Virus record (IMG/VR): IMGVR_UViG_3300020043_002178
Coordinates: 1-28,375 of that record
Direction: 5' to 3' (one strand)
Source of the DNA: a virus
Taxonomy: Duplodnaviria; Caudoviricetes
Length of the DNA: 28,375 nt
Part shown: positions 3,343 through 27,979 of the stretch, piece by piece
Numbering within the stretch: position 1 is the first letter of the stretch
Layout of the letters: each line of letters opens with the position of its first letter
The notes under the pieces: generated by a model
Databases searched by the model: none
What the model was told of the DNA's origin: nothing
Seen by the model: only the letters and a program-made list of their open reading frames with translations
Translations under genes and position numbers: made by a program

Positions 3343-3698
3343 AAATACTTATACCAGCGATATTAGATAATTACTCACCCAGAAAGGATAATACCTTTAG
3401 TGTTAAGTTTCTTACACAGGAGTTAAGTAATGAGCAATTATTGAATATTAACTCGGCTAGGGATAAGTTTGGGATATTGTATTTCAAAGCTGAATCTGAT
3501 ATAACAAACGAAGAACTAGAAAAGCTTGATGAGGTTGATATTGATATAACCGACAAAAGCAAAACACCATCTAAAAGGATTAGAAGCGTATTGTTCCGTA
3601 ACTGGCAGCAAGACAATAAAGGCTTTACAGAGTTCAAAAATTTTTATATATTTGAAACAGAAAGGATTATCGAACACTATAAAAGTAAATTGGAGTAA
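3339..3698 (+). CDS. hypothetical phage protein upstream of terS
   Basis: ORF track; ATGA and TAATG overlaps with its neighbours. Confidence 0.65.
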   Translation: MKILIPAILDNYSPRKDNTFSVKFLTQELSNEQLLNINSARDKFGILYFKAESDITNEELEKLDEVDIDITDKSKTPSKRIRSVLFRNWQQDNKGFTEFKNFYIFETERIIEHYKSKLE

Positions 3699-4102
3699 TG
3701 GCTAAACATAAATACATAGAATCACCTGAAAAGTTTTGGGACTTATTTGTTGAGTTTAGAGAATTAAAATTATCTCAAAAGATTAAGCAACAAGTAACAT
3801 CGAGAGCAGGAGTAGAAACATTAGAACATACACCACCTCTTACATGGGCAGGGTTTGATGCTTGGTTATATGAGAAGAAAGTTATTACAGATACAGGTGA
3901 TTATAGAACTAATGAGAAGGGGAAATATGACGAATTTTCGGAGGTCATACGCGCAATAACCAATATAATGTACACTCAAAAGTTTGAAGGTGCGAGCGTT
4001 GGCGTGTTTAACGCTAACATTATAGCGCGTGATTTAGGACTTAAAGACAGCACAGAAACAAATCTAAAAGTGGAGCAACCATTGTTTCCAGAAAATAAGT
4101 AG
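3698..4102 (+). CDS. terS: terminase small subunit (P22 gp3-like)
   Basis: PLTWAGF...QKFEGASVGVFNANIIARDLGL, typical of gp3-like packaging proteins; position upstream of terL. Confidence 0.85.
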   Translation: MAKHKYIESPEKFWDLFVEFRELKLSQKIKQQVTSRAGVETLEHTPPLTWAGFDAWLYEKKVITDTGDYRTNEKGKYDEFSEVIRAITNIMYTQKFEGASVGVFNANIIARDLGLKDSTETNLKVEQPLFPENK

Positions 4103-4125: not shown

Positions 4126-4133
4126 TATATTTG
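4126..4133 (+). promoter_or_regulatory. possible -7 promoter element (TATATTTG) for the HNH gene
   Basis: TAnnTTTG in the terS-HNH gap, 3 nt before ATG 4137. No clear -33 element. Confidence 0.4.
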
Positions 4134-4136
4134 ATT

Positions 4137-4643
4137 ATGGAAAAAAGTATAATTGGATATGAAGGACTTTACACGGTATCAGATACTGGAGTAGTAAAAT
4201 CAACTCCTAGAAAAGGAACAAAAGGAGGTGAAATAAAAGTAATCAAAGATGAATACTATGAAGTAGTGTTGTGTAAAGACATGAAAATGAAAAGATTTAA
4301 TCTTCATAGATTAATAGCTACAGCATTTATTCCGAATCCTGAAAACAAACCACAAGTAAACCATATTAATGGTGATAAATACGATAACAGGATTGAAAAC
4401 TTAGAATGGTGTAATAATTCAGAAAACCAATTACATAGTTACAGAATAGGATTAAGAAAAAGCGTAAGAGGTGAAAAAAATGGCAACGCAAAACTAACAG
4501 ATAAACAAGTTGTTGAAATATATTCAATAATAAAAAGTAGAGGTAAGAACTACGGTAGAAAAGAATTAGCGTTAAAGTATAGCGTGTCTGAATGCACAAT
4601 AAAGGAAATAGCGACAAACAGAAGATACACATCTCATGTTTAG
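4137..4643 (+). CDS. free-standing HNH homing endonuclease (NUMOD4 + HNH + C-terminal HTH-like)
   Basis: IIGYEGLYTVSDTGVVKS (NUMOD4), LHRLIATAFIPNPENKPQVNHINGDKYDNRIENLEW (HNH), GEKNGNAKLT...ELALKYSVS. ATG 4137 is preferred over TTG 4131. Confidence 0.9.
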   Translation: MEKSIIGYEGLYTVSDTGVVKSTPRKGTKGGEIKVIKDEYYEVVLCKDMKMKRFNLHRLIATAFIPNPENKPQVNHINGDKYDNRIENLEWCNNSENQLHSYRIGLRKSVRGEKNGNAKLTDKQVVEIYSIIKSRGKNYGRKELALKYSVSECTIKEIATNRRYTSHV

Positions 4644-5847
4644 AAGAACTACAACAATAGATAAAATTCTGCGGATACAAGCCCGAAAAAAAGTAATACA
4701 GGGCGGTACTTCCGCAGGAATGTAAGCCCCTTTGTGAAAATGAAGGGGCAAAGGAAAAACTTTTGGTATATTGCCTATCTTAATAGATAAGGCTTGCAAA
4801 ACGCCAAACTTAGAAATATCTGTTGTATCTGAAACAATACCACATTTAAGAAGAGGTGCGCTAAAAGACTTCCTTAAAATAATGGTTTGGACTAATAGGT
4901 ATATTGACTCTCATTACAATAAATCACTTTTAACATATCGTTTTGCTAATGGTTCTTACATCGAGTTCTTTAGTGCTGAACAAGAAGAGAAGCTAAGAGG
5001 TGCAAGAAGAAATATTTTGTACATAAATGAGTGCAACAACCTTCCATTTGAAGCATACCACCAACTAGCAATAAGAACAAGCCACGATATTTATTTAGAC
5101 TTTAACCCTACAAATGAGTTTTGGGCGCATACCGAAGTATTGAATGAACCCGATAGCGAACATTTAATAGTTACGTATATGGATAATGAGGCTTTGCCAC
5201 CAAACGTAATAGGAGAAATGGAGGTGGCAAAGAAAAAAGCTGAAACATCTGATTATTGGCGTAATTGGTGGAGAGTGTATGGCTTAGGCTTGATAGGCAC
5301 ATTAGACGGCGTAATATTTCCAGATATTAATTTAGTAGATGAATTTCCAAAGGATTGTAAATGGATAGCTTATGGTCAAGATTTCGGATTTACAAACGAC
5401 CCGTCTGCATTAATTAAAGTAGGTTTTGTAAATGGTGAATTGTGGCTACAAGAAATGATTTACGCTAAAGGCTTAACAAATCAAGATTTAAGTAAGAAGT
5501 ATAAGGAAGTTGGACTAGTTCCTTTAGATGAGATTTACGCGGATAGTGCCGAGCCTAAAAGCATCGAAGAGTTAAAGCGTGAAGGGTGGAGGAACATAAA
5601 GCCAACGCTTAAAGGTAAAGATAGCGTAAATACAGGGATAGGATTAATGCAAAGCCATAAAATAAACATCACTAAGGATAGCGTTAATTTAATTAAAGAA
5701 TTTAGGAATTACCAATGGGAGAAAGATAATGACGGGAAAACTACTAATAAACCTATTGACGACTACAATCACGGAATAGATGCGATTCGTTATGTATGCC
5801 TTATGAAAATATTGAAGAAAAAAAGTTCTGTTGTTAGTTCCTTATAA
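4636..5847 (+). CDS. terL: terminase large subunit (PBSX-like), interrupted by a 36-nt insert in Walker A; 391 aa if the insert is skipped
   Basis: ATG 4636 gives MFRRTTTIDKILRIQARKKVIQGGTSAG, in frame with KTFGILPILIDK from 4756. Walker B ILYINE, DFNP, and nuclease motifs GQDFGFTNDP, DSAEP, NHGIDAIRY are intact. Confidence 0.9.
4717..4755 (+). other. candidate programmed translational bypass element (GGA take-off 4717-4719, GGA landing 4753-4755, 36-nt gap)
   Basis: GGA ATG TAA GCC CCT TTG TGA AAA TGA AGG GGC AAA GGA; hairpin 4726-4749; AGGAA direct repeats at 4716-4720 and 4752-4756. The interruption is directly visible; the mechanism is inferred. Confidence 0.65.
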
Positions 5848-7697: not shown

Positions 7698-8171
7698 ATG
7701 CAAGACAAAACGAGCGCCCAAACATTAATCGATGTTAAGAATCAAATCCAAACACTAGAAAATAGGATAGTGTTTTTAGATAGTTATTGTAAAACATTGT
7801 TAGAAGCATCACAAAAAGAAGGGCTTTCAGATGTAGAAAGATGTGAACTTTTAGATAAACACTATAAATTTAGCATTGAAAGACAATCTAAAATCGATTT
7901 GTTACAAAACAAAAAGCAAACAGAGTACTTGCACGAAGAAATGAGCCGTAGAAATGCGGAGCTAAAGTACATGAGCGCTAATATGGCCGCAATGGTTAAA
8001 GCTGTTAGAAACGCTCCAATGACATTAGAAAACAGCAAACTACGCGGCGGAATAATTGATAGATTTAGCAAAGGATACGCTAAAATAGAAGAGCAACGCA
8101 ACGACTTTAAATTGCTCGGTGCTATCATTAACGAAAGCAAAATTGAATTCACGCCTGTAACGCCTGAGTAA
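7698..8171 (+). CDS. hypothetical alpha-helical/coiled-coil protein
   Basis: ORF track; no enzyme motif seen. Confidence 0.65.
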   Translation: MQDKTSAQTLIDVKNQIQTLENRIVFLDSYCKTLLEASQKEGLSDVERCELLDKHYKFSIERQSKIDLLQNKKQTEYLHEEMSRRNAELKYMSANMAAMVKAVRNAPMTLENSKLRGGIIDRFSKGYAKIEEQRNDFKLLGAIINESKIEFTPVTPE

Positions 8172-8722
8172 TGAACATTTGGTACAACATACCGTGGAGC
8201 AATTCAAAGGATTTAGGAAAGGCGTATAATGATTTCATGCGCTTAATTCCTAATGATGATTACGCTTGTTTTATCGACCGTGACGCAATGTTCTTAACGC
8301 CTTTTTTCGGAAAGCAACTAAGCGATATTGTAAACGCTAATAAAGACTGCGGTATATTTGTGGCTAAAGCGAACCGTATAGGCTGCCAATGGCAAAGAGA
8401 GCCTAAAATGTGGGACGAACTAGATATGGGCAAACACATACAGAAAGCAACCGAACTATTTACTACTAAATACGATGAGTGTACGGAAGTATCAACCCCT
8501 CCGATTGGTGGTAATTATCTAGGTGGCTTTCTTATGTTGGTATCAAAAAAGGTTTGGGATAAAGTAGGCGGATTTAAAGAGGGCATCGGTATGTTGGGAG
8601 TAGATAATGAATTGCATTATGCAGCACAAAGACACAACGAAAAGATATTATTAATGAATGGCGTTTACCTTTATCACTGGTACAGGGGAGGAAAAGCCGA
8701 AAGAAAAGAACACTTACTATGA
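8171..8722 (+). CDS. GT-A fold glycosyltransferase-like protein
   Basis: LGKAYN, CFIDRDAMF (DxD), GFLMLVSKKVWDKVGGF, GVDNE, YLYHWY. Confidence 0.7.
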   Translation: MNIWYNIPWSNSKDLGKAYNDFMRLIPNDDYACFIDRDAMFLTPFFGKQLSDIVNANKDCGIFVAKANRIGCQWQREPKMWDELDMGKHIQKATELFTTKYDECTEVSTPPIGGNYLGGFLMLVSKKVWDKVGGFKEGIGMLGVDNELHYAAQRHNEKILLMNGVYLYHWYRGGKAERKEHLL

Positions 8723-9489
8723 AATATATCGTAATTGCACACACTAAAGACTACCACGAAAAGGCAAAGCAGTATCTATACTCTTTGAATAAATACGCAA
8801 AAGACATTAAGATAAGAATTTTGTGCATTGACTTCATGCCCGACAAAAAAGAAGATTGGATAGAATATGCAACCTGCCAATTAACACAACTTCCTTCGTT
8901 CCGTAGAGGTTGGCCACACAATAGAAAGTTTTATGTATGCTTAGAAGGCGGTGATTTTCTACCTTATTTTAAATGGAATGATGATGATGTGATTATACAC
9001 ACAGACAGCGATATGCTTTTGCAACGTCCTTTCGATATTGACGAATTAACTGCACTTGATAATCTACAAACGGGTGAAATTGGCGCGAGTAAATCGGGCT
9101 ATAAATTAACGCTACGTGAGGAATATTGGAGATTGAAGCCTAAAGCTGGCAACGTGTACGCAAAACAATTCTTTCCTGATGGGTGGCTAGAGGAAATGTA
9201 TTGCGCTGGCATCATAGTGGGTCGTGTTGATACGTATAGAATGTTAAGCAAATTCTACCTAGAAAAGATTGATTTAATGATGCACCTATTCGACCACCAC
9301 GCGGCAGGCCAATGGATATTTAACCAAGCTATTCACACAGAATTACAATTGGTTGATTTAACTAGCGTGTTTCATTGTGCGGATTGGTTTATAGATATTA
9401 AGACCGAAAAGAAAGAAGGTAAACTGTACTATAATAACTCAATGTGTTTATTTAACCATACTAAATTTGAAGGAGAATGGACGGTGTAA
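8719..9489 (+). CDS. putative glycosyltransferase (DxD)
   Basis: IIHTDSDML (DxD), YCAGIIVG, QWIFN and late NH; cluster context. Confidence 0.55.
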   Translation: MKYIVIAHTKDYHEKAKQYLYSLNKYAKDIKIRILCIDFMPDKKEDWIEYATCQLTQLPSFRRGWPHNRKFYVCLEGGDFLPYFKWNDDDVIIHTDSDMLLQRPFDIDELTALDNLQTGEIGASKSGYKLTLREEYWRLKPKAGNVYAKQFFPDGWLEEMYCAGIIVGRVDTYRMLSKFYLEKIDLMMHLFDHHAAGQWIFNQAIHTELQLVDLTSVFHCADWFIDIKTEKKEGKLYYNNSMCLFNHTKFEGEWTV

Positions 9490-10145
9490 AAAAAATATGT
9501 TATACCGCTATATTTGGCGAGTATGACGATTTAAAAGAGCCTAAGGTAATTACTGAAGGCTGGGAGTATGTTTGTTTTACAAATAGTCCAAATCTTAAAA
9601 GCAGTATTTGGAATATTGTACAATATAACCCACAAGAAAAGCCACAAAACAAAAGAGAACATTCGTTGATAGCGCGTTTTCTAAAAATTAACCCACATTC
9701 ACAATTTGGCAAAGAAAATGTGTTATCTGTTTGGGTTGATGGTTCGATAGAAATTAACTGTAACCTAGATGAATTTGTAAATAAATACAAAGGCCGCGCT
9801 TTAACTATAATGAAGCACCCAACGCGAAATTGTGTATATCAAGAAGCTAATGCTTGTATTGGACTTAAAAAAGATGATGAAGGCATTATAATATCGCAAA
9901 TGGCAAACTATAAGCACTTGTATATGCCTGAACACGTTGGAATGGTTGCAAGCGGTGTAATTATTAGAAACCACAATGAAGATGTTAATTCATTCTGCGA
10001 AAAGTGGTGGGCGCAGGTTAATAGATTCAGTATTCGCGACCAGCTTTCTTTCAACTTTGTTGCGTGGATTAGCGATTTCAAATATACCGTTATGCCTTTC
10101 GATATACTTCGCAACGAAATGAGAATTAAAAAACATTTGAAATGA
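9477..10145 (+). CDS. DUF616/TOD1-MUCI70-like glycosyltransferase
   Basis: CYTAIFGEYDDLKEP, ARFLKINPH, WVDGS, KHPTRNCVYQEA, RDQLSFNFVAW. Confidence 0.75.
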   Translation: MDGVKKICYTAIFGEYDDLKEPKVITEGWEYVCFTNSPNLKSSIWNIVQYNPQEKPQNKREHSLIARFLKINPHSQFGKENVLSVWVDGSIEINCNLDEFVNKYKGRALTIMKHPTRNCVYQEANACIGLKKDDEGIIISQMANYKHLYMPEHVGMVASGVIIRNHNEDVNSFCEKWWAQVNRFSIRDQLSFNFVAWISDFKYTVMPFDILRNEMRIKKHLK

Positions 10146-10882
10146 TTACAGGAATAACCAATATAATCTTTAGTAAAAACAGAGCGATGCAGTTGCACGC
10201 GTTACTTGAAACTATTTTAGTACGGTGTAATATATTTGAAAACAATGTTGTTATTTACACACATGATGAAATTTACGCTAAATCTTATGATTTACTCATA
10301 GATAGATTTCCTAAAGTTACTTGGGTTAAAGAAACTATCTTAAAGGAAAACATATTACAAGCAATGAAAACGCAATACACTTGCTTTATGTGTGATGATG
10401 ATATTATTTTTGATGGTTTTATAGGTGATGTTACTATGTGCGATAAAACATTTTGTTATTCGCTAAGGCTAGGACATAACGTAAGCAATAACATAGGGCA
10501 GCAATGGAACTGGAGGCAAACTAAAACAGCGCATTACAACTATGCTTTCTCTACCGATGGGCATATTTATTCAACCGATGTAATTAAACCAATGGTTAGC
10601 AATATTCGCTTTGATAATCCAAATGTATTTGAATCGGCAATGTTTAAACACGCCGATAGTTTCCCACCTTTGATGAGGTCGCCTGAATTATCTGTTTTAA
10701 CTTCGTTTAGTGTTAATCGTGTAAGCGATAAGTCACATTGCGCCACATCTAACCAGTACAGAGAAAACGAATTACACACAATGTACTTAGAGGGCTATTT
10801 AATTGACTGGCATAATATGGATATGACGGGAGTAGATAGACCGATTTACGAAGAGTACGAATTAAAATTTAAACTATGCTAA
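10142..10882 (+). CDS. putative GT-A glycosyltransferase
   Basis: IIFSKNRAMQL...FMCDDDIIF, SLRLG, STDGHIY. Confidence 0.6.
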   Translation: MITGITNIIFSKNRAMQLHALLETILVRCNIFENNVVIYTHDEIYAKSYDLLIDRFPKVTWVKETILKENILQAMKTQYTCFMCDDDIIFDGFIGDVTMCDKTFCYSLRLGHNVSNNIGQQWNWRQTKTAHYNYAFSTDGHIYSTDVIKPMVSNIRFDNPNVFESAMFKHADSFPPLMRSPELSVLTSFSVNRVSDKSHCATSNQYRENELHTMYLEGYLIDWHNMDMTGVDRPIYEEYELKFKLC

Positions 10883-11460
10883 TAGACATTAAAACCATCA
10901 AAGACATTAAAGGCGTTATTCATGTAGGCGCTTTTATGGGTGAAGAGAAAAAGATATATGATGAAATGGGATTGCCTGTAATATGGGTAGAGGCGCAAAA
11001 GGATTTGTGTGATAGGCTTATTTCAAGGGGTGATCGTGTAATAAATGCAGCTGTTTCTGATAAAGAGTTTGAAACTACATTAAAGATTAGCAGCAACGGA
11101 GCATCTACATCTATTTTAGACTTTGGAACTCACGCTGACAAATACCCAAATATAACGGTAGAGAAAGAAATTAAAATAACAACTACGACACTCGAAACAA
11201 TTATCGATGAAAACGAAATTGATTTAAGTAAATTCAACTTTATTAATATAGATATTGAGGGACACGGTTTAGCGGCTTTAAGAGGATTAGGCGAATATGT
11301 TAGCGCGTTTAAGTACTTATACATGGAGGTGTACAAAGACGAATTATACAAGGGATGCGATATTTTCGGCGACTTAGAAAAAGAATTCCCACAATATAAA
11401 TTACAAGAAACCGCATTTACTGGCAGGGGCTGGGGCGATGCACTATACATTAAGAAATGA
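10876..11460 (+). CDS. FkbM-family methyltransferase
   Basis: VIHVGAFMGEE, WVEA, NAAVSD, NIDIEG, YLYMEV, WGDALY. Confidence 0.85.
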   Translation: MLIDIKTIKDIKGVIHVGAFMGEEKKIYDEMGLPVIWVEAQKDLCDRLISRGDRVINAAVSDKEFETTLKISSNGASTSILDFGTHADKYPNITVEKEIKITTTTLETIIDENEIDLSKFNFINIDIEGHGLAALRGLGEYVSAFKYLYMEVYKDELYKGCDIFGDLEKEFPQYKLQETAFTGRGWGDALYIKK

Positions 11461-12359
11461 AAATACTAATTACAGGTGGCGCAGGTTACAAAGGATGCTT
11501 GCTCACACAGGAGTTATTAAACAAAGGTAATGAAGTTACTGTATTAGATAACTTCATGTATGGACACAGTTCAATAATGCCTTACCTATCAAATCCAAAC
11601 TTTAAAGCTATAAGTAAGGACATTCGTACGATTAACGAAAGTGATTTAAAGGAGTATGATGTTATTTATCATTTGGCAGGAATTAGCGGATATCCAGCTT
11701 GTGAGGCGAACCCGAATAGCGCGCACATGATTAATGTAGAAAGCACAAAGAAAATAGTTGATTTATTGGGTAAAGAACAGAAACTAATTTATGCTTCTAC
11801 AACATCATTTTACGGAAAGGCTGGGGTTGAATGTGATGAACAAAGCGAATGCAGCCCAGTCAGCACTTACGGAGTAACCAAACTACAAGCGGAAGAAATA
11901 TGTATGCAGAAAGAAAATGCTTTAGCGTTACGATTTGCAACTATCTTTGGAGTTACTCAAAGAATGCGCCCCGATTTATTACTAAACGATTTTGTGTATC
12001 GCGCGATGTACGAAAGAACGCTAGTATTATTTGATAGTGCAAGCAAAAGGACATTTATACACGTTAAAGATGCTATTAAAAGTTATACCGATTTCACTCA
12101 CTTAAAAGGGGTTTACAATGTGGGTAGCAATGATATGAATTTTAGTAAGCGTGAATTGGCCGACATGGTTGCTAAACACATTAACTTCGAGATTATAGAG
12201 GCGTCAACACCCGACAAAGATAAGCGCGACTTCATTATAAACTTCGACAAAATAGAGAAAGAAGGTTTTAAAATTACCGTATCAATGGATGAAGGTATCA
12301 AAGAATTGATTAAATTGTACTCATTCTATAACCCATACCCAGTTTATGCAAAGATTTGA
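11457..12359 (+). CDS. NAD-dependent NDP-sugar epimerase/dehydratase (extended SDR)
   Basis: ITGGAGYKG, HLAG, YAST, YGVTK (YxxxK), RTFIHVKD. Confidence 0.9.
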   Translation: MKILITGGAGYKGCLLTQELLNKGNEVTVLDNFMYGHSSIMPYLSNPNFKAISKDIRTINESDLKEYDVIYHLAGISGYPACEANPNSAHMINVESTKKIVDLLGKEQKLIYASTTSFYGKAGVECDEQSECSPVSTYGVTKLQAEEICMQKENALALRFATIFGVTQRMRPDLLLNDFVYRAMYERTLVLFDSASKRTFIHVKDAIKSYTDFTHLKGVYNVGSNDMNFSKRELADMVAKHINFEIIEASTPDKDKRDFIINFDKIEKEGFKITVSMDEGIKELIKLYSFYNPYPVYAKI

Positions 12360-12735
12360 AGAACATGGAATATTACTAGCAATTGCTAGTATTTCAGAGC
12401 CAATTAACGAAGGTACGCAGTTTATAACCTCTAACCACCATGATATACAGGTAGGAACATGGAAGTATGAAGCAGGAAAAAAGCTAAACAGCCACTACCA
12501 TAAAGACAATGAGCGCAGCATAACGCGCACGCAGGAATTTATCTACATTAAGAAAGGCAAAATAAAATGCCTTGTTTATGGTTTGGATTCCATTTTAATT
12601 AATAGTTTTGTTTTGAGTGAGGGTGATTACGCTACATTCTTTAATGGTGGTCACGGTTACGAATTCATAGAAGATAGCGAGGTTATAGAGGTTAAATGTG
12701 GAGAGTTTAATTATGATGATAAAGTAAGGATATGA
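12346..12735 (+). CDS. cupin-fold protein (sugar isomerase/WbuC-like)
   Basis: HYH...TQEFIYIKKG and GGHGYEF...EVKCG cupin motifs. Confidence 0.7.
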   Translation: MQRFEEHGILLAIASISEPINEGTQFITSNHHDIQVGTWKYEAGKKLNSHYHKDNERSITRTQEFIYIKKGKIKCLVYGLDSILINSFVLSEGDYATFFNGGHGYEFIEDSEVIEVKCGEFNYDDKVRI

Positions 12736-13256
12736 GTTTAAAGTTACATCTTGGCTGCGGCAAAAGAAAAATAGAAGGATTTATTCATATTGATAATGAT
12801 TCATACCCTCATCTAGACTATTGCAGAGATATTCGCGATTTATCTATATTTCCTGATAATAGCGTTGATTTAATCTATTCATCACACGCTTTTGAATATT
12901 TCAATAATCCTGCTGAAGTATTAACGGAATGGAAAAGAGTGTTAAAAGAAGGTGGCAAATTAAGGCTTTCAGTTCCCGACTTTGCACAACTTGTAAAAGT
13001 GTATCGTAAAACTGATGATATAAGTAAAGTTAAAGGCGCTTTATACGGACATTGGGGAGATAAACAACACTTCACTTGTTACGATAAAAGAAGTTTAGGT
13101 ATGTTGCTATGGGATGCAGGATTTAGTGCAATTGAAGAATGGGACTGGAGATTAACGGAGCATTGCAATGTAGATGACTATTCGCAGGCTTATTTCCCTC
13201 ACATGGATAAAGAAAATGGAATTCAAATAAGTTTAAACATACAAGCAATTAAGTAA
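12732..13256 (+). CDS. class I SAM methyltransferase
   Basis: LHLGCG, FPDNSVDLIYSSHAFEY, WKRVLKEGGKLRLSVPD. Confidence 0.85.
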   Translation: MSLKLHLGCGKRKIEGFIHIDNDSYPHLDYCRDIRDLSIFPDNSVDLIYSSHAFEYFNNPAEVLTEWKRVLKEGGKLRLSVPDFAQLVKVYRKTDDISKVKGALYGHWGDKQHFTCYDKRSLGMLLWDAGFSAIEEWDWRLTEHCNVDDYSQAYFPHMDKENGIQISLNIQAIK

Positions 13257-13966
13257 TGGAGCAAAAGAAAATTGAATACCCATTAGGACAAGGACGCTAT
13301 GAACGCCCCGAAATTCAAATGTGTAAAGATAAAGGTTACGACATTAAAGACCCACGCGATGCTATAAGTATCTTTGAAAAGAAGATTGCCGAGTTTACAG
13401 GCGCAAAGTACGCGGTGGCAGTTGATAATCTAACAGATGGGTTATTTTTATGTTTAGGCGTACTAAATAAGCTATTAGACCCTATTATAATTCCAAATAG
13501 AACGTATTGCAGCGTACCAATGACAATACTTAACGCTGGCTACGGATTACAACTTAAAGATATTGCGTGGAGTGGAATGTACCAATTAACACCAATGCCT
13601 ATTTGGGATTGTGCCGTTTCCTTTAAAAAAGATATGTATAAAGAAGGGCAGTTAATGGTGCTTTCATTTCAACACAAGAAAAGGCTTTGTATTGGTAAAG
13701 GCGGTATGATTCTTACTGACCATGAGGGATATTATAAATGGCTTATTGCAGCACGTTACGAAGGGCGTAATTTAGATGTTAACCAGTGGGACGATGAATA
13801 TTCAATGATTGGATGGAATATGTACATGAGTCCTGACGATGCGGCAAGAGGAATATTAATCTTTGATGATTTAATAGAAAACAACACAAAATGGGAAGAT
13901 TGGGCAGGAAGTGAAAACTATCCCGATTTAAGTACAAAAAAAATATTCCAAAAATATGCTTCATAA
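13256..13966 (+). CDS. DegT/DnrJ/EryC1/StrS-family sugar aminotransferase (short form)
   Basis: FEKKIAEFTGAKYAVAV, TYCSVP, SFQHKK (PLP-lysine region), GKGGMILTD, GWNMYM. Confidence 0.85.
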   Translation: MEQKKIEYPLGQGRYERPEIQMCKDKGYDIKDPRDAISIFEKKIAEFTGAKYAVAVDNLTDGLFLCLGVLNKLLDPIIIPNRTYCSVPMTILNAGYGLQLKDIAWSGMYQLTPMPIWDCAVSFKKDMYKEGQLMVLSFQHKKRLCIGKGGMILTDHEGYYKWLIAARYEGRNLDVNQWDDEYSMIGWNMYMSPDDAARGILIFDDLIENNTKWEDWAGSENYPDLSTKKIFQKYAS

Positions 13967-14591
13967 AATTATTGAACACCTAGAAAAAGGAGAAAATTTC
14001 AGCTTTAGCCGATTTGGGGACGGTGAGTGGGCGTGTCTGTTAGGTAAGAACGGGGCAAACTGTGACGGGCACGCTTATTTTCACGATATGGGCGATAGGC
14101 TTTTAAAGATTGTAGAAAGTAATCCTAAGTACTACATGGGATTGCAGACACTAGCCGAAAACACTTACCCCGATGAGATAGCTAAGTATCCTATTGAATG
14201 GGTCGAAAGCGATTGTTTACATAGAGCAAGCATAAGAGGGGAAATACAGCCTTTCTTTGATGTGTTAAACAAAAAGAATATTGTATTTGTAGGCAACCAC
14301 AGACACCAAAAACAAAGCATCATTAAGGTAGATAAATTTATTGAAGTGCCTATAAATGATTGTTGGAGAAAGTATAAAGATGTATTAGAAGAAATACGAA
14401 CTAGCATTGATAAAGACGATGTAATAATCTATTGCGCGTCAATGATGGCAAATGTGCTTATTGATGATATTTACAATGAGTTTGGCAATACTGTTACTCA
14501 AATAGATTGCGGCAGCTTATTCGAGCCTTACATGGGAATATCAATTAGAAGTTATCACAGTAAATTAATTCAAAAACTAAAACAGAAATAA
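13956..14591 (+). CDS. GT-D fold (DUF1792-like) glycosyltransferase
   Basis: SFSRFGDGE at the N-terminus and QIDCGSLF near the C-terminus. Confidence 0.75.
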   Translation: MLHKIIEHLEKGENFSFSRFGDGEWACLLGKNGANCDGHAYFHDMGDRLLKIVESNPKYYMGLQTLAENTYPDEIAKYPIEWVESDCLHRASIRGEIQPFFDVLNKKNIVFVGNHRHQKQSIIKVDKFIEVPINDCWRKYKDVLEEIRTSIDKDDVIIYCASMMANVLIDDIYNEFGNTVTQIDCGSLFEPYMGISIRSYHSKLIQKLKQK

Positions 14592-15175
14592 TGACAAGAG
14601 CAACGATTTTAAACAGCCTAATTAAGAAGTTTGGATATAAAACCTTTTTAGAGATTGGCGTGAATAACGGGATTAATTTTGAATCAATCAATGCAGAATA
14701 CAAGGTAGGCGTTGACCCTGACCCCAAAAGCCCAGCGACATTAAAAATAACTAGCGACAAGTTTTTTGAAACTAACAATCAAAAGTTTGATTTGATTTTT
14801 GTTGATGGCTTACATCATGCCGACCAAGTGTACAAAGATATTTTAAACTCTTTGGATTTCTTAGAAGATGGCGGCGCAATATTAGTTCACGACTGCAACC
14901 CATTAACAGAAGCTAGTCAAGTTGTGCCACGTATGCAAACCTATTGGCATGGTGACGTTTGGAAAGCATGGGTAAAATTACGCACCGAAAGAAGTGATTT
15001 ATCAATGTTTGTAATAGATACAGATTGCGGTTGCGGACTTATTACCAAAGACTCTCAAAACAAATTAGTTACGTCTGAAGAAATTAATTATAAAAATCTT
15101 GAAAAGCATAGAGAAAATTGGTTAAATTTGAAAACAAAAGAATATTATATCGAATGGTTAGAAAAATCAAAATAA
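14591..15175 (+). CDS. class I SAM methyltransferase (Methyltransf_24-like)
   Basis: FLEIGVNNG, GVDP, FDLIFVDGLH, GGAILVHD. Confidence 0.85.
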   Translation: MTRATILNSLIKKFGYKTFLEIGVNNGINFESINAEYKVGVDPDPKSPATLKITSDKFFETNNQKFDLIFVDGLHHADQVYKDILNSLDFLEDGGAILVHDCNPLTEASQVVPRMQTYWHGDVWKAWVKLRTERSDLSMFVIDTDCGCGLITKDSQNKLVTSEEINYKNLEKHRENWLNLKTKEYYIEWLEKSK

Positions 15176-23937: not shown

Positions 23938-24957
23938 GTGAGTAAATTACTAAACATAAAAAACCAAACAGCCGATTCAATCGATTTATTGATTGATACC
24001 GAAATAGGCTCTTATGGTGTTTCTGCTAAAGGATTTATTTCAGAGGTTAAAAACGCAGGAGTTAAGAATATCAACCTAACTATTAACTCAGTAGGTGGAA
24101 GTGTTTTTGATGCTTTTGCGATTTATGACTTTTTAGTTTCTCCTCAAAATAACTTTAATGTATCTGTAAAAATCGAAGGTTTAGCGGCTAGTGCTGCTAC
24201 TATTATCGCGTTGGCTGATAGAAAGAAACCTAAGATGACAGAAAATAGCTTCTTTATGATTCACAACCCTTCATTGTTGGTTATGAACTTTTCAGATATG
24301 GAAGCAAGTGATTTAAGAGAGCAAGCGAAAGAATTTGAATCAACTGCTGACTTCTTAGATTCTATTAAAAATAGATTGGCTTCTATTTATTCAAATATAA
24401 CTGGAAAAAATAAAGCTAAAATCAATCAAATGATGGATGATGAAACATGGATGGATGCACAAGAAGCATTATCAAATGGTTTTATTTCATCAATTGAAAA
24501 AGGTGTTGCTATTGCGGCTATGGCTGATGAGCAAACGCTTAAAAAGTACGGCTATAATAAAGCATCATATATTAACAATAAAACCAATTCAGAAATGGAT
24601 AACAAAGTACAAGAACTAATAACTTCATTAAAAGAGGTTGTTATGAACTTTGGCAAAAAGCCAGAAGAAGTTCAGAATGTTGTTACTGAGGTTAAAATCT
24701 TAGATAACGAAGAAGTAAAAAATAAAATTGCTTCAATCGAAAGCGTAATTGCATCGCATGAAACAGAAGTTAAAAACAAGATTCAAGAAATTGAAGATTT
24801 GAAAAACAAACTTTCTGCTTTAGAAGATGAAAACGCTCTTTTGAAAGCAAGTAAATCAGAAATACCAGCAGCGCAAAATACAGCTAATACAGAGCCTCAA
24901 AACTCAGAAAAAGGTGCATTTGCTCAATGGTTAATTAAAGCGGCTCAAAACAGATAA
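23938..24957 (+). CDS. ClpP-family prohead protease with a C-terminal scaffold-like coiled coil
   Basis: INSVGGSV, GLAASAAT (Ser), FMIHNP (His), ETWMDAQEAL..GF; GTG start; directly upstream of the capsid gene. Confidence 0.9.
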   Translation: MSKLLNIKNQTADSIDLLIDTEIGSYGVSAKGFISEVKNAGVKNINLTINSVGGSVFDAFAIYDFLVSPQNNFNVSVKIEGLAASAATIIALADRKKPKMTENSFFMIHNPSLLVMNFSDMEASDLREQAKEFESTADFLDSIKNRLASIYSNITGKNKAKINQMMDDETWMDAQEALSNGFISSIEKGVAIAAMADEQTLKKYGYNKASYINNKTNSEMDNKVQELITSLKEVVMNFGKKPEEVQNVVTEVKILDNEEVKNKIASIESVIASHETEVKNKIQEIEDLKNKLSALEDENALLKASKSEIPAAQNTANTEPQNSEKGAFAQWLIKAAQNR

Positions 24958-24980
24958 TAACAATTTAATAAATAATCAAG

Positions 24981-26000
24981 ATGGCAAATTTAATCGCAAC
25001 CAGTTTTTCGCACACGTACGCAGGAGTTGAGTACTTGTCGCAATTATTCTACAAACCTCAAGAGGGTAGAGATAACGTATTCGCTAACTACAAAGTTATG
25101 CCAAACGTTAAAACAAAAATTAATCTTTATTTACCAGGCACTTTAGCTAAAGTTGTTCGTGCTTACACTACTTGCGGTTTTTCTGCAACTGGTGGAACTA
25201 CTACAATTACAGATAGAGTACTTGACGTAAACAAAGTAAAAGTAAACTTAGAAGAGTGCGTTGACGCGGTATTCGATACTGTATTCGAAGAAGCAATGAA
25301 AGCAGGTGTGCAAATCACTGACCTTTCAGGTACTATCATCGAAACAATCGCAAGAACAAAAGTAGTTGAAGCAATTAAATCGGACGTTGGCCGTATCGCT
25401 TGGTTCGGTAAGTCTGGTGCTGTTTCTGCTGACTACTCAATGGCTGATGGATGGGTTGAGTTGTTTATCGATTCTTCTGCTACTCTTGGACAGTTCTTCA
25501 ATATGGATTCAAGTTCATACGAAAGTTCAGGTACTTTGGTAACAAACGGTGCATACAACGCATTGAAATATATGTACGAAAACCAAACTAAGGTTTTACG
25601 TCAAGTTGCTAAAAAAGACAAAGCTTTCTATGTAACAGCTACGGTAATTGATAACTTAACTACTACTTACGAGCAATTGGGTACTGGTAACAACCTAGGA
25701 TTAACTATGTTGATGGATGGTAAACAATCGTTGATGTTCAGAGGTATTCCATTAATCGAAGTAACTGGTTGGGACACTGACTTAGCAGATTCTGACAATC
25801 CACAAGCTGCATTCGTTGGTGATAACATGATTGTTTTAACAATGAAAGACAACTTGGTAATTGGTACTGATGTAACAGACCCAAGCGCAGAATTGAAATT
25901 CAGATTTAACGATGATGATGATGAGAAAATGAAAATCACATCTAAGTTCAAAATCGGTTTCCAAATTATTCACCCAGAATTAGTATCATTCGGCTACTAG
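24981..26000 (+). CDS. major capsid protein
   Basis: 339 aa after the protease; FRGIPLIEV and NLVIGTD; codon choices of a highly expressed gene (frequent GCT, GGT, TTC, AAC). Confidence 0.8.
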   Translation: MANLIATSFSHTYAGVEYLSQLFYKPQEGRDNVFANYKVMPNVKTKINLYLPGTLAKVVRAYTTCGFSATGGTTTITDRVLDVNKVKVNLEECVDAVFDTVFEEAMKAGVQITDLSGTIIETIARTKVVEAIKSDVGRIAWFGKSGAVSADYSMADGWVELFIDSSATLGQFFNMDSSSYESSGTLVTNGAYNALKYMYENQTKVLRQVAKKDKAFYVTATVIDNLTTTYEQLGTGNNLGLTMLMDGKQSLMFRGIPLIEVTGWDTDLADSDNPQAAFVGDNMIVLTMKDNLVIGTDVTDPSAELKFRFNDDDDEKMKITSKFKIGFQIIHPELVSFGY

Positions 26001-26012
26001 GCCGAGTGATAC
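25983..26012 (+). other. 12-bp RNA hairpin with the capsid stop codon in its loop
   Basis: GTATCATTCGGC-TACTAG-GCCGAGTGATAC (one G-U pair); no U-tract follows. Confidence 0.65.
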
Positions 26013-26033
26013 CATTCTACAAAACTTTAAGAT

Positions 26034-26603
26034 ATGGCAAATATTGATGAAGATATTTTAATCACGTGCGCGGACGAAAACCGTAGAGGCGGCATAAAAC
26101 GCGTGTTCTTGGCAAATGCCGATAAGATTACTTCTTTTACACCAAGCGGAACAAATCACAGTTATACTTCTGTAACTATGGATTCAACCGCTGATGAATG
26201 GTTCGAAGTACAAGGTGAGTTCGAGAAAAAAGTATTAACTGGTGAAGGTTCTATCGAGAATGGTTCATCTGTAAGTACAAACACTTTAACTATCCATGTT
26301 CCGAAAATTGAGAAAGTAAAAGGTAATGCAATTCAAGAATTGTTCAACTCATGTAAAGTAGTTGCGATTGTTGAAACATATACCGACACTGGAACTTACA
26401 ACCAAGCGTTAGTTATTGGTTACGATGATATTTTAGGCGTTGACGCTGGTTTAAGAATGTCAGTAAATCAATCAATTGAAGGTGAGTTGCAAGGATTAAA
26501 CGGGTACGATTTAACCTTTACTGGTAAATCTGCTGAAGTTTTCCGCGAGTTTGTTGGCGCAATCACTAGCAATAGTTCAGGTTCTGTGAGCTTTGGTTCA
26601 TAG
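26034..26603 (+). CDS. putative major tail tube protein
   Basis: 189 aa, beta-rich; C....GGIKRVFL and NGYDLTFTG; followed by a terminator. Confidence 0.65.
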   Translation: MANIDEDILITCADENRRGGIKRVFLANADKITSFTPSGTNHSYTSVTMDSTADEWFEVQGEFEKKVLTGEGSIENGSSVSTNTLTIHVPKIEKVKGNAIQELFNSCKVVAIVETYTDTGTYNQALVIGYDDILGVDAGLRMSVNQSIEGELQGLNGYDLTFTGKSAEVFREFVGAITSNSSGSVSFGS

Positions 26604-26625
26604 TTAAATAGTCAATAATAAAATT

Positions 26626-26659
26626 AGGGAGAATCGTAAAAAAGTTCTCCCTTTTTTTT
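26626..26659 (+). terminator. intrinsic terminator
   Basis: AGGGAGAA...TTCTCCCT stem running into a T8 tract (26652-26659). Confidence 0.8.
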
Positions 26660-26666
26660 AAATTTG
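26659..26666 (+). promoter_or_regulatory. possible -7 element (TAAATTTG) for the portal gene
   Basis: TAnnTTTG starts at the end of the terminator T-tract, 5 nt before ATG 26672. Confidence 0.4.
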
Positions 26667-26671
26667 TTGTT

Positions 26672-27979
26672 ATGGTAGAAGGCACAAAAAAACATAACGT
26701 AAAAGCATCTTCTTTAGTTCTTGTAGATACTAATGTAAAGCAGGAGAAAAAGAATGAGCAAAGCGTTTCAGATACCCCGTGGATTCCGTTTTTCAAAGAT
26801 TCAAACAATATTTATATCAATGATTTAGCTTTACGCGCTAGACGTTCTCCTGTTCATGGCTCAATCATTAGAAGTAAGATTTCTTATGCTTGCGGTCAAG
26901 GATTTGAATTCAAGGTAAAAGGCAAAGAATATAAGTTCGATGAACTAGATATTAAATACAAAAAATGGTTTCAGCAATGCAATGCGGATGGCCAAAGTTT
27001 TAATGATGTGTTTCGCAATATAATGACAAACTTTATAATGCTTGCAAATGCTTATCCTTGGGTTGTTAGAACAGCTAGAGATGGTGTGTTTGGCTTGTAT
27101 AGTGAAGATGGTACAAAGGTTAGAATATCAAAGGATAAAAAGAAAACATATCGCTCTTCATTTTGGAGAGAGAATTTGAACAATAAAAGCGTAAGCAAAG
27201 ATACGCCGATTGATAGCGATGTTGATTTATATAGAGGCATCAAAACGCAAAGAGAGTATTTAGTACACATCAAACAATACTATCCTGAATTCGATTACTA
27301 CGGAATACCTGAATATATACAGGCTTTAGAATGGGCAGACGTTGAGTATAATATTCCTAGATTTAACAACAATAAGTTTAAAAACGGGTTCTTTCCTAGC
27401 GCATTAGTGCAATTGTTTTCTAATCCACCTGAAGGAATGGAAGCAGAGGATTATGTACGTAAAATAGTGAATAGATTTAGTGGTGAAGATAACAACAGCA
27501 AGATAATTGTTGAAATGTTAGATTCCCCTGAACAAGCTGCTAAAATACATGAGTTTGGAAGCGGAAAGGATGGCGAATTTATCGACTTAGATAAGTTAGC
27601 TACAGAAAACATTATATCTGGCCATAGATGGTCATCAGCTTTAGTTAAAGAAACGGGCGGTAAATTAGGAGGCAATCAACAGCTTATTAATGAGTATCAA
27701 AAAGTAATGAACGGAGTTGTAGTGCCTGACTTTCAAACGCCAGTATTAAGAGAAGTTAATAAGATATTGAGCCGAGAATTTAACGAAGATATAGAGATTA
27801 GTATTATTCAATTAGCACCGCTTGGTGTTGATTCAAATATTGATGTTAATGCTGTTATGACTATTAACGAAGCGCGTGAAAGAATAGGTTTAGAATCGTT
27901 TATGGAAGAGGGAGAAGAAAGAGGAAATGAATTGGTGAAGAGTACAAACAAACAAAACACTTCTAACAATGGCCTTTAA
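26672..27979 (+). CDS. portal protein
   Basis: SPVHGSII..K..Y..GQG, YYGIPEY, FKNGFFPS, FSGEDN, IISGHRW, MTINEARERIGL (HK97-like portal motifs). Confidence 0.85.
   Translation: MVEGTKKHNVKASSLVLVDTNVKQEKKNEQSVSDTPWIPFFKDSNNIYINDLALRARRSPVHGSIIRSKISYACGQGFEFKVKGKEYKFDELDIKYKKWFQQCNADGQSFNDVFRNIMTNFIMLANAYPWVVRTARDGVFGLYSEDGTKVRISKDKKKTYRSSFWRENLNNKSVSKDTPIDSDVDLYRGIKTQREYLVHIKQYYPEFDYYGIPEYIQALEWADVEYNIPRFNNNKFKNGFFPSALVQLFSNPPEGMEAEDYVRKIVNRFSGEDNNSKIIVEMLDSPEQAAKIHEFGSGKDGEFIDLDKLATENIISGHRWSSALVKETGGKLGGNQQLINEYQKVMNGVVVPDFQTPVLREVNKILSREFNEDIEISIIQLAPLGVDSNIDVNAVMTINEARERIGLESFMEEGEERGNELVKSTNKQNTSNNGL

Follow-up and report, generated by a model that had tools for sequence, protein, structure and literature searches.

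Paired stem-loops at an interrupted Walker A motif in a phage terminase gene: a candidate family of translational bypass cassettes

The interrupted terL gene and its stem-loops

The DNA analyzed here, called the window throughout, is a stretch of 28,375 nucleotides, the linear virus record IMGVR_UViG_3300020043_002178, which is a phage fragment estimated to be 76% complete. Its plus strand carries, in a row, a terminase small-subunit gene (terS, 3698-4102; GP3_package, E 2e-8; phrog_606 terminase small subunit, E 2e-19), a gene for a free-standing NUMOD4-HNH endonuclease of 170 amino acids (4131-4643; HNH_3, E 2e-11; NUMOD4, E 8e-6) and the terminase large-subunit gene terL (4636-5847), the start of which is overlapped by the 3' end of the endonuclease gene. 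Read from the ATG at 4636, terL begins with a first segment of 28 codons (4636-4719) ending in G-G-T-S-A-G, the first six Walker A residues. It is followed by 36 nucleotides with three stop codons (4720-4755) and then by K-T-F-G, which opens a second segment of 363 amino acids (4756-5847) that starts at the Walker A lysine and reaches the nuclease domain (Terminase_3 and Terminase_3C). In insert-free relatives, which also possess the N terminus of the first segment, the Walker A motif is uninterrupted and aligns with the P-loop of the solved terminase 4idh. Since the three stops are in frame, no start codon lies ahead of the Walker A lysine in the second segment and the record holds no terL copy besides the interrupted one, the gap must be skipped. 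An independent run yielded a contig that covers 4636-4853, with five substitutions and no gap, and the insert is thus not an assembly artifact. No joined sequence lacking the insert was among the matches listed for that run or for one metatranscriptome set against the relative L314, which yielded no contigs; coverage of the site was thin, and the result favors neither view of what happens to the insert in the RNA.

Among cultured-phage proteins, the best matches are to Flavobacterium phages (53%); blastn of 4636-4860 against cultured phages gave no match. None of the 36 gene starts in the window has a Shine-Dalgarno (SD)-like site and the upstream regions are A-rich, as expected for a phage of Bacteroidota, the host group that we infer from these starts and the Flavobacterium phage matches. 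A search of the window for tRNA genes found none, and promoter and terminator scans stayed at chance level, the coding strand showing no terminator at all. Positions 8171-15175, which separate terL from the tail and head genes, hold genes for a glycosyltransferase, FkbM-type and other methyltransferases, an NAD-dependent epimerase, a DegT aminotransferase and GT-D-like proteins, likely a sugar-making and sugar-adding cassette. The gene order at 23938-27979 is unusual in that the tape measure, head protease and probable capsid genes precede the portal gene, which lies about 21 kb from terL.

The upstream stem-loop (plus strand, 4667-4719) is written into terL codons and begins 31 nucleotides past the start codon. 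Its predicted minimum-energy and centroid structure consists of an outer helix (4667-4675 with 4711-4719, with one G-U pair at 4668-4718), a middle helix (4676-4678 with 4706-4708) and an inner helix (4681-4684 with 4701-4704). An earlier note on this DNA had proposed these pairings and had let the stem end on a take-off GGA; every pair is indeed present and equals the predicted fold, and the end falls on the GGA at 4717-4719. The inner and middle helices, ending 12 and 8 nucleotides before the take-off codon, are both parts of one longer stem, whose outer nine pairs include that codon. At -21.9 kcal/mol (z -4.37), the structure is matched in stability by 1 of 200 dinucleotide shuffles and by none of the window's 609 other coding 54-mers (best, -21.8). 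With the peptide held fixed, no synonymous shuffle folded as well, under either phage codon usage (0/2000; mean, -4.9) or uniform usage (0/2000; mean, -8.9; best, -22.1 versus -22.2). Of the stem codons that the note had called GC-rich for this genome, CTG (2% of Leu), CGG and CGA (1% and 5% of Arg), GCC (6% of Ala) and TCC (1% of Ser) are rare in this phage, but GGC (19%) and GCA (35%) are not. The window's own stem core has no exact viral match.

The predicted take-off codon, GGA (Gly28, 4717-4719), is separated from a second hairpin by six nucleotides, the spacing of the family described below. This spacer (4720-4725) consists of a sense ATG and the stop TAA, the latter placing a U at +4. 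The gap hairpin itself (4726-4749) has 10 bp, is capped by a GNRA tetraloop (4736-4739), includes two more in-frame stops, and folds at -16.1 kcal/mol (z -4.74). Matching the take-off codon, the predicted landing codon is likewise GGA (4753-4755), the final codon of the 36-nucleotide gap, and directly precedes the Walker A Lys-Thr codons.

A family of hairpin inserts with matched codons and an upstream stem

An insert of this kind was found in 6 of 80 relatives selected on protein similarity alone. Among the loci listed in pattern scans, insert-bearing terL genes made up 17/121, 81/106, 75/120, 0/10 and 25/119; the 17 of 121 belong to a first hairpin pattern that was loose, and the 0 of 10 to a GGA-GGN pattern. 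The resulting family comprises at least 76 distinct inserts of 32 to 44 nucleotides, all at the Walker A motif and falling into 30 clusters at 80% identity; the count leaves out duplicates, the copy in the window itself and one locus in which the motif could not be read. The insert is out of frame in 34 of the 76 and in frame in 42, each of the latter with a stop. All 76 contain a gap hairpin (-13.3 to -23.3 kcal/mol) with a 6-nucleotide spacer ahead and a short AU-rich tail behind, and 43 of these hairpins bear a tetraloop, mostly GNRA or UUCG. At +4 after the take-off codon (4723 in the window), 75 of 76 inserts have a U, which may or may not open a stop codon, a feature for which we have no explanation. 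A host and prophage search in GTDB, with a pattern limited to the CAG codon, returned 13 matches, none of them terL.

The genes that carry these inserts are intact and under purifying selection. The second segment is open in 100 of 101 distinct insert-bearing sequences with enough DNA, dN/dS has a median of 0.049 and a maximum of 0.114 (407 non-independent pairs), and first segments without an ATG have a TTG or GTG start at the same place. One locus, L264, has a second segment that stops after 79 amino acids and may be an error or a dead copy.

To place the take-off codon we used only the hairpin, taking the in-frame codon that ends 5 to 7 nucleotides before its C-run, and we set the landing codon by protein homology. 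So defined, the two are identical at codon positions 1, 2 and 3 in 75, 67 and 17 of 76 inserts, versus 18, 2 and 20 for the control codon before and 3, 4 and 21 for the one after. With one representative per cluster, identity is 30/25/7 of 30; in the metagenome subset, for which the scan left the take-off side unconstrained (the viral scans constrained part of it), it is 24/22/2 of 24. Such a two-of-three match locked to the frame is the mark expected of tRNA re-pairing, and neither a splice site nor the decay of a target duplication predicts it. Nine of the 10 imperfect pairs go from GCN to GTN, a C-to-U change at position 2 that leaves a G-U wobble for tRNA-Ala; reading GTN literally would put Val into the motif, and Val occurs there in none of 74 insert-free rows. 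The tenth pairs TCG with GCA at a single locus (L286), whose unmatched ends may reflect an error or a dead copy. Several pairs need loose third-position pairing or worse, namely GGT/GGA (3 inserts), GCC/GCA (6), TCC/TCA (2), GCC/GTA (2) and TCG/GCA (1), and these count against a bypass reading.

The take-off codon occupies one of three registers in the motif, Ser4 (4 inserts), Ala5 (43) or Gly/Ser6 (29), and in every register the C-run of the gap hairpin starts 5 to 7 nucleotides past it. The Ser register (TCN to TCA) was seen in the metagenome scan only, at L473, L480, L502 and L510. The codon next after take-off is a stop in 8 of 76 inserts; in the others it is a normal sense codon (ATG in the window), and in 39 inserts a stop comes second. 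The triplets in the first position are of 20 kinds and are common codons, with TTA in 3 of 76. As a sense codon mostly follows, neither the stop of T4 nor a hungry codon explains what triggers take-off. No premature landing triplet occurs in the 76 gap tails, a weak sign given that the tails are short and AU-rich, and 57 of the gaps contain another copy of the first two bases inside the hairpin. G-runs end 1 to 9 nucleotides before the landing codon, mostly 6 to 8 (4 in the window). A mini-SD function for them is doubtful, and the host is probably SD-blind: Bacteroidia ribosomes are described as ignoring SD sequences, even at the prfB shift site.

The upstream stem is tied to the insert across the family. 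We compared the 20 codons ending at the take-off codon with synonymous shuffles (p<=0.05; segments with a stop or with fewer than 60 nucleotides upstream were left out), and 83 of 86 insert-bearing segments beat their shuffles, versus 12 of 125 insert-free ones. The proportion is high in each register (Ser4, 4/4; Ala5, 38/40; position 6, 41/42). A first insert-free control set, without the window's peptide type, passed in 3 of 57 cases, and genes matched for the A-R-K-K peptide stretch passed in 9 of 68 (median z, -0.73 versus -3.64 for insert-bearing genes). Among the latter is L677, the window's nearest peptide-matched insert-free relative (83% over 101 amino acids), whose segment folds at -5.4 with a z of +0.4. 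In all 86 insert-bearing segments, the end of the stem and that of the take-off codon are 0 to 4 nucleotides apart, the stem moving along when the register changes, and other lineages have different stems in different pairing registers. For the window's pairing register, 21 distinct sequences were available, from 24 of the 42 register-6 segments; 87% of cells are paired, four pairs have changed on both sides and none of 500 shuffles does as well, values that kinship inflates. Slid-structure controls reach 38 to 46% of cells. The middle pairs 4677-4707 and 4678-4706 are not conserved, being unpaired in 17 and 13 of the 21 sequences. A downstream barrier stem differs weakly (-7.5 versus -6.1 kcal/mol; p 0.015), and we make no claim for it.

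Insert-bearing genes are nevertheless not the only ones with the stem, which can be maintained where no insert is present. The stem is whole in 5 of the 68 peptide-matched genes (L602, L628, L661, L665 and L676), which have cassette-type sequence on both sides and share a short patch at the junction resembling the one in insert-free alleles; most simply, these would be cassettes that lost the insert through short-patch recombination. The absence of the structure from insert-free homologues, to which the earlier note had tied its idea of a coding sequence adapted to the insert, therefore holds as a tendency and not as a rule. Its further suggestion that the basic nascent peptide contributes found no support: Lys plus Arg per 20 residues is 6.7 in insert-free and 6.1 to 7.0 in insert-bearing segments (p 0.38), and a targeted scan found the A-R-K-K stretch in about 250 insert-free records. 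An ancestral peptide effect shared with insert-free genes may exist. On the same grounds, we dropped Lys-to-Ala at -7 and Leu-to-Met/Val at -9 as stem adaptations, which they had seemed to be by comparison with the first insert-free set, A-R-K-K being a lineage trait.

Movement of the cassette and its nuclease neighbor

Comparison of insert-bearing genes with their nearest insert-free counterparts points to movement of the first 28 codons and the insert as one conversion tract between terL genes. In 22 such pairs, the first segments are 72% and the second segments 92% identical, while in 72 insert-free control pairs the values are 94% and 93%. A single gene, L010, displays the pattern most directly: flanking the first segment it is about 95% like insert-free L003, and within the segment it is 78% like L003 and 98% like L205. 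On a TerL tree the inserts are scattered, requiring 11 gains or losses, 8 of them forced by well-supported branches; this was a quick tree of 71 rows from which near-copies and short rows had been removed, and related sequences mean that the counts are not independent.

A nuclease gene lies directly upstream, by Pfam, at 11 of 38 insert-bearing and 1 of 30 insert-free loci, and by tblastn at 33 of 99 insert-bearing loci versus 2 of 62 and 0 of 61 insert-free ones, the latter search being biased toward insert-bearing loci since these supplied 10 of its 11 seeds. The nucleases include HNH as well as GIY-YIG types, and the HNH protein of the window is closest to those beside Ala-register inserts. 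Two thirds of the insert-bearing loci have no upstream nuclease gene. At L008:1457-1924 and L034:1469-1924, an HNH or GIY-YIG-like gene stands immediately upstream of a terL gene that has no insert, which shows that nucleases occupy this site in the absence of inserts as well. From this genomic arrangement, the neighboring NUMOD4-HNH nuclease likely spreads the cassette, and the insert would destroy the nuclease target in the conserved Walker A DNA.

This mobility also qualifies an argument of the earlier note, namely, that the adapted codons speak against a recent inactivating insertion. The gene is not dead, and the cassette is old and selected; because the adapted codons travel with the insert, however, they indicate the age of the cassette and not when this phage acquired it.

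A bypass model and its alternatives

Taking these observations together, we consider it very probable that ribosomes bypass the 36-nucleotide gap in terL, and the best reading of the inserts is as a new family of programmed translational bypass cassettes. In the literature on bypassing accessible to our search, no hairpin inserts of this kind in a terminase Walker A motif came up, and an earlier report may exist elsewhere.

The closest functional precedent is T4 gene 60, with its 50-nucleotide bypass and MobA-linked homologues in myovirus topoisomerase genes (bioRxiv 10.1101/2022.08.31.505936; 10.1101/2024.12.09.627546; PMC11194080). According to these sources, the T4 5' stem-loop ends 9 nucleotides before the take-off codon and is not conserved between clades, whereas the codon itself lies within a separate take-off or extended stem, whose folding upon exit is the proposed driver of the slide; in the MobA cassette the insert blocks self-cleavage, and the nuclease may be swapped or lost (10.1101/2022.08.31.505936; 10.1101/2024.12.09.627546; PMC11194080). 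Both exit-side pairing as a driver and a nuclease-linked cassette, as we propose for terL, thus have a T4 precedent in those descriptions, and the adjacency and enrichment of homing endonucleases at terL inserts parallel MobA. The earlier note had likened the terL stem to the T4 5' stem. The stem is tied to the insert, but it reaches into the take-off codon and so comes closer to the take-off or extended stem of T4, which means that most of it can form only after the ribosome has moved on; by analogy, it may combine the two T4 elements. The differences are several. The T4 family resides in a topoisomerase large-subunit gene with NTE/CTE extensions, and we saw no sequence homology to it in terL. 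The terL take-off codon pairs with upstream codons and that of T4 with gap sequence, and unlike in T4, a separate gap hairpin starts 6 nucleotides downstream of take-off. The upstream stem position is conserved family-wide in terL, unlike what is reported for the 5' stem of T4. T4 has a stop or hungry codon next to take-off, neither of which is found in 68 of 76 terL inserts; a mini-SD 5 to 7 nucleotides before landing, for which the terL family has no fixed counterpart; and a dedicated nascent-peptide signal, while no insert-specific peptide signal was detected in the 28-codon first segment. Finally, the terL gaps measure 32 to 44 nucleotides against 50 in T4.

In the mitochondrial byps of Magnusiomyces, a hairpin follows shortly after take-off, as it does in the terL inserts. 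The byps of Magnusiomyces capitatus and M. clavatus average about 37 to 39 nucleotides, have GGA as the commonest take-off codon, and have codons for take-off and landing that match loosely and an AU-rich 3' part, according to the reports (PMC5009743; PMC13461519). The terL inserts are thus similar to them in length, in GGA as a take-off codon, in their loosely matched ends and in their AU-rich 3' part. As described there, byps require an unused A-site codon and are apparently independent of mRNA context, whereas the terL inserts have a common A-site codon and co-adapted upstream codons; moreover, terL inserts are found in a bacterial phage, in one motif and linked to a nuclease. By analogy, the terL cassette would work like T4 gene 60 and be built like a byp, and it falls outside what defines either family. 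Among phages, the terminase bypass of the Streptomyces phage phiHau3 also places a coding gap in a large terminase at a conserved junction, but its gaps are described as 7 to 10 nucleotides long and triggered by a rare UUA, in contrast to 32 to 44 nucleotides, two hairpins, no rare codon and an unrelated host group here (PMC10732093). The A-site-docking stem-loops of the dnaX and HIV frameshift sites are likewise long hairpins whose distance from the P-site codon, downstream of it, is fixed, and are reported to be able to hinder A-site tRNA binding; they act at 11 to 12 nucleotides, compared with 5 to 7 for the terL spacer, so the terL hairpin may not dock in that way (PMC7282821). Cluster O mycobacteriophages are described in the literature as a possible bypass case. 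Finally, a group I or group II intron is not indicated, as the 36-nucleotide insert has no catalytic core and 4400-5000 yielded no Rfam match at E<=1.

We propose that bypassing probably proceeds with the upstream stem as an exit-side driver, as follows. When the take-off GGA (4717-4719) occupies the P site, the hairpin of the gap, beginning 6 nucleotides downstream, would sit inside the mRNA channel, which is reported to hold 11 nucleotides (PMC7282821), and would stall the ribosome or hinder A-site decoding. At this point only the inner helix, whose 3' end lies 12 nucleotides behind the take-off codon, could have formed. The peptidyl-tRNA-Gly would release, and the rest of the stem would zip up behind the sliding ribosome. 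This would yield about 14.6 kcal/mol over the first 15 nucleotides, near the 16.1 that melting of the gap hairpin costs, and would put the take-off codon out of reach for renewed pairing. The tRNA would then re-pair at GGA 4753-4755, and decoding would resume at the Walker A lysine to give a TerL of 391 amino acids, whereas ribosomes reading on would stop at the TAA after 29 residues. In this calculation, which assumes 9 nucleotides covered 5' of the P site, a 15-nucleotide advance of the P site takes the free upstream RNA from a predicted -9.5 kcal/mol to -24.1. The median energy gain behind the ribosome is -12.6 kcal/mol in the insert family versus -3.0 in insert-free genes. The efficiency of bypassing may be low, and TerL is needed in few copies.

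Some of these observations could be accommodated differently. Bypassing might be real and the upstream stem a brake or ribosome spacer ahead of the ribosome, or a mere backstop that hides the take-off codon. A stem that starts 31 nucleotides after the start codon would suit a brake, T4 ribosomes are described as pausing when stems reach the entry channel, with ribosome spacing mattering, and the end of the stem at the take-off codon could equally be accounted for by a backstop and nothing more. We nonetheless regard this as unlikely, since the energy gain of the stem tracks the stability of the gap hairpin (rho 0.38, confounded by GC content and kinship). More improbable still is removal of the 36 nucleotides from the RNA, by a protein-dependent mini-intron, cleavage and ligation, or a polymerase jump, with the hairpins as a recognition structure. 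Two adjacent conserved helices, a fixed 6-nucleotide spacer and the near-invariant +4 U could well form an enzyme substrate, and most members have no stop or rare codon after take-off. Yet the insert ends have no fixed sequence and instead follow codon positions 1 and 2 and shift with the register. Take-off position 2 is unpaired in the stem in many Ala-register members, so that the 5' arm of the stem cannot explain the match. In addition, 32 nucleotides are too few for a ribozyme core, and there was no Rfam match at E<=1.

The upstream stem might also be a by-product with no translational role, its GC-rich codons reflecting nuclease escape or origin in a donor gene. The first segment is, after all, a probable conversion tract beside a nuclease gene, five insert-free genes have the stem, and 5' stems of the T4 family are reported to be poorly conserved and maybe accidents. 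Recoding for nuclease escape does not, however, predict complementarity, and the different stems of different lineages all end at the take-off codon, with compensatory changes, and we give this reading very little credence. Least probable of all, and largely refuted, is a dead terL or an assembly error, with the terminase supplied by a helper. The record being 76% complete, a second terL is possible, and one of the 101 insert-bearing second segments is truncated (L264); against this stand the insert in the independent contig, the 100 intact second segments, a dN/dS of at most 0.114 and 76 diverged inserts at one motif.

Under the preferred reading, bypassing with an exit-side driver, a bolder formulation can be offered tentatively, as one that could well prove wrong: a portable cassette of about 130 nucleotides (28 recoded codons plus the insert of 32 to 44 nucleotides) that homes between aquatic-phage terminases, in which the hop is powered by two hairpins trading places, with no stop, hungry codon, SD pairing or special peptide, and with Gly, Ala and Ser tRNAs serving at three adjacent codons. 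Programmed bypassing is established in very few genes, in bacteria those of T4 gene 60 and its homologues and the UUA gaps of Streptomyces phages, and exit-side folding as the driver of the slide has so far been argued from T4 mutants. Thirty diverged natural cassettes, in which the stem has been rebuilt from essential codons in three registers, would provide a direct and testable case for such a driver, in a family that apparently does without the stop codon that T4 needs. As inserts were present in 6 of 80 relatives selected by protein, such terminases are annotated without their ATP-binding loop or as broken. The combination of an insert with its bypass suggests how homing endonucleases might, as a general strategy, shield a site that is essential.
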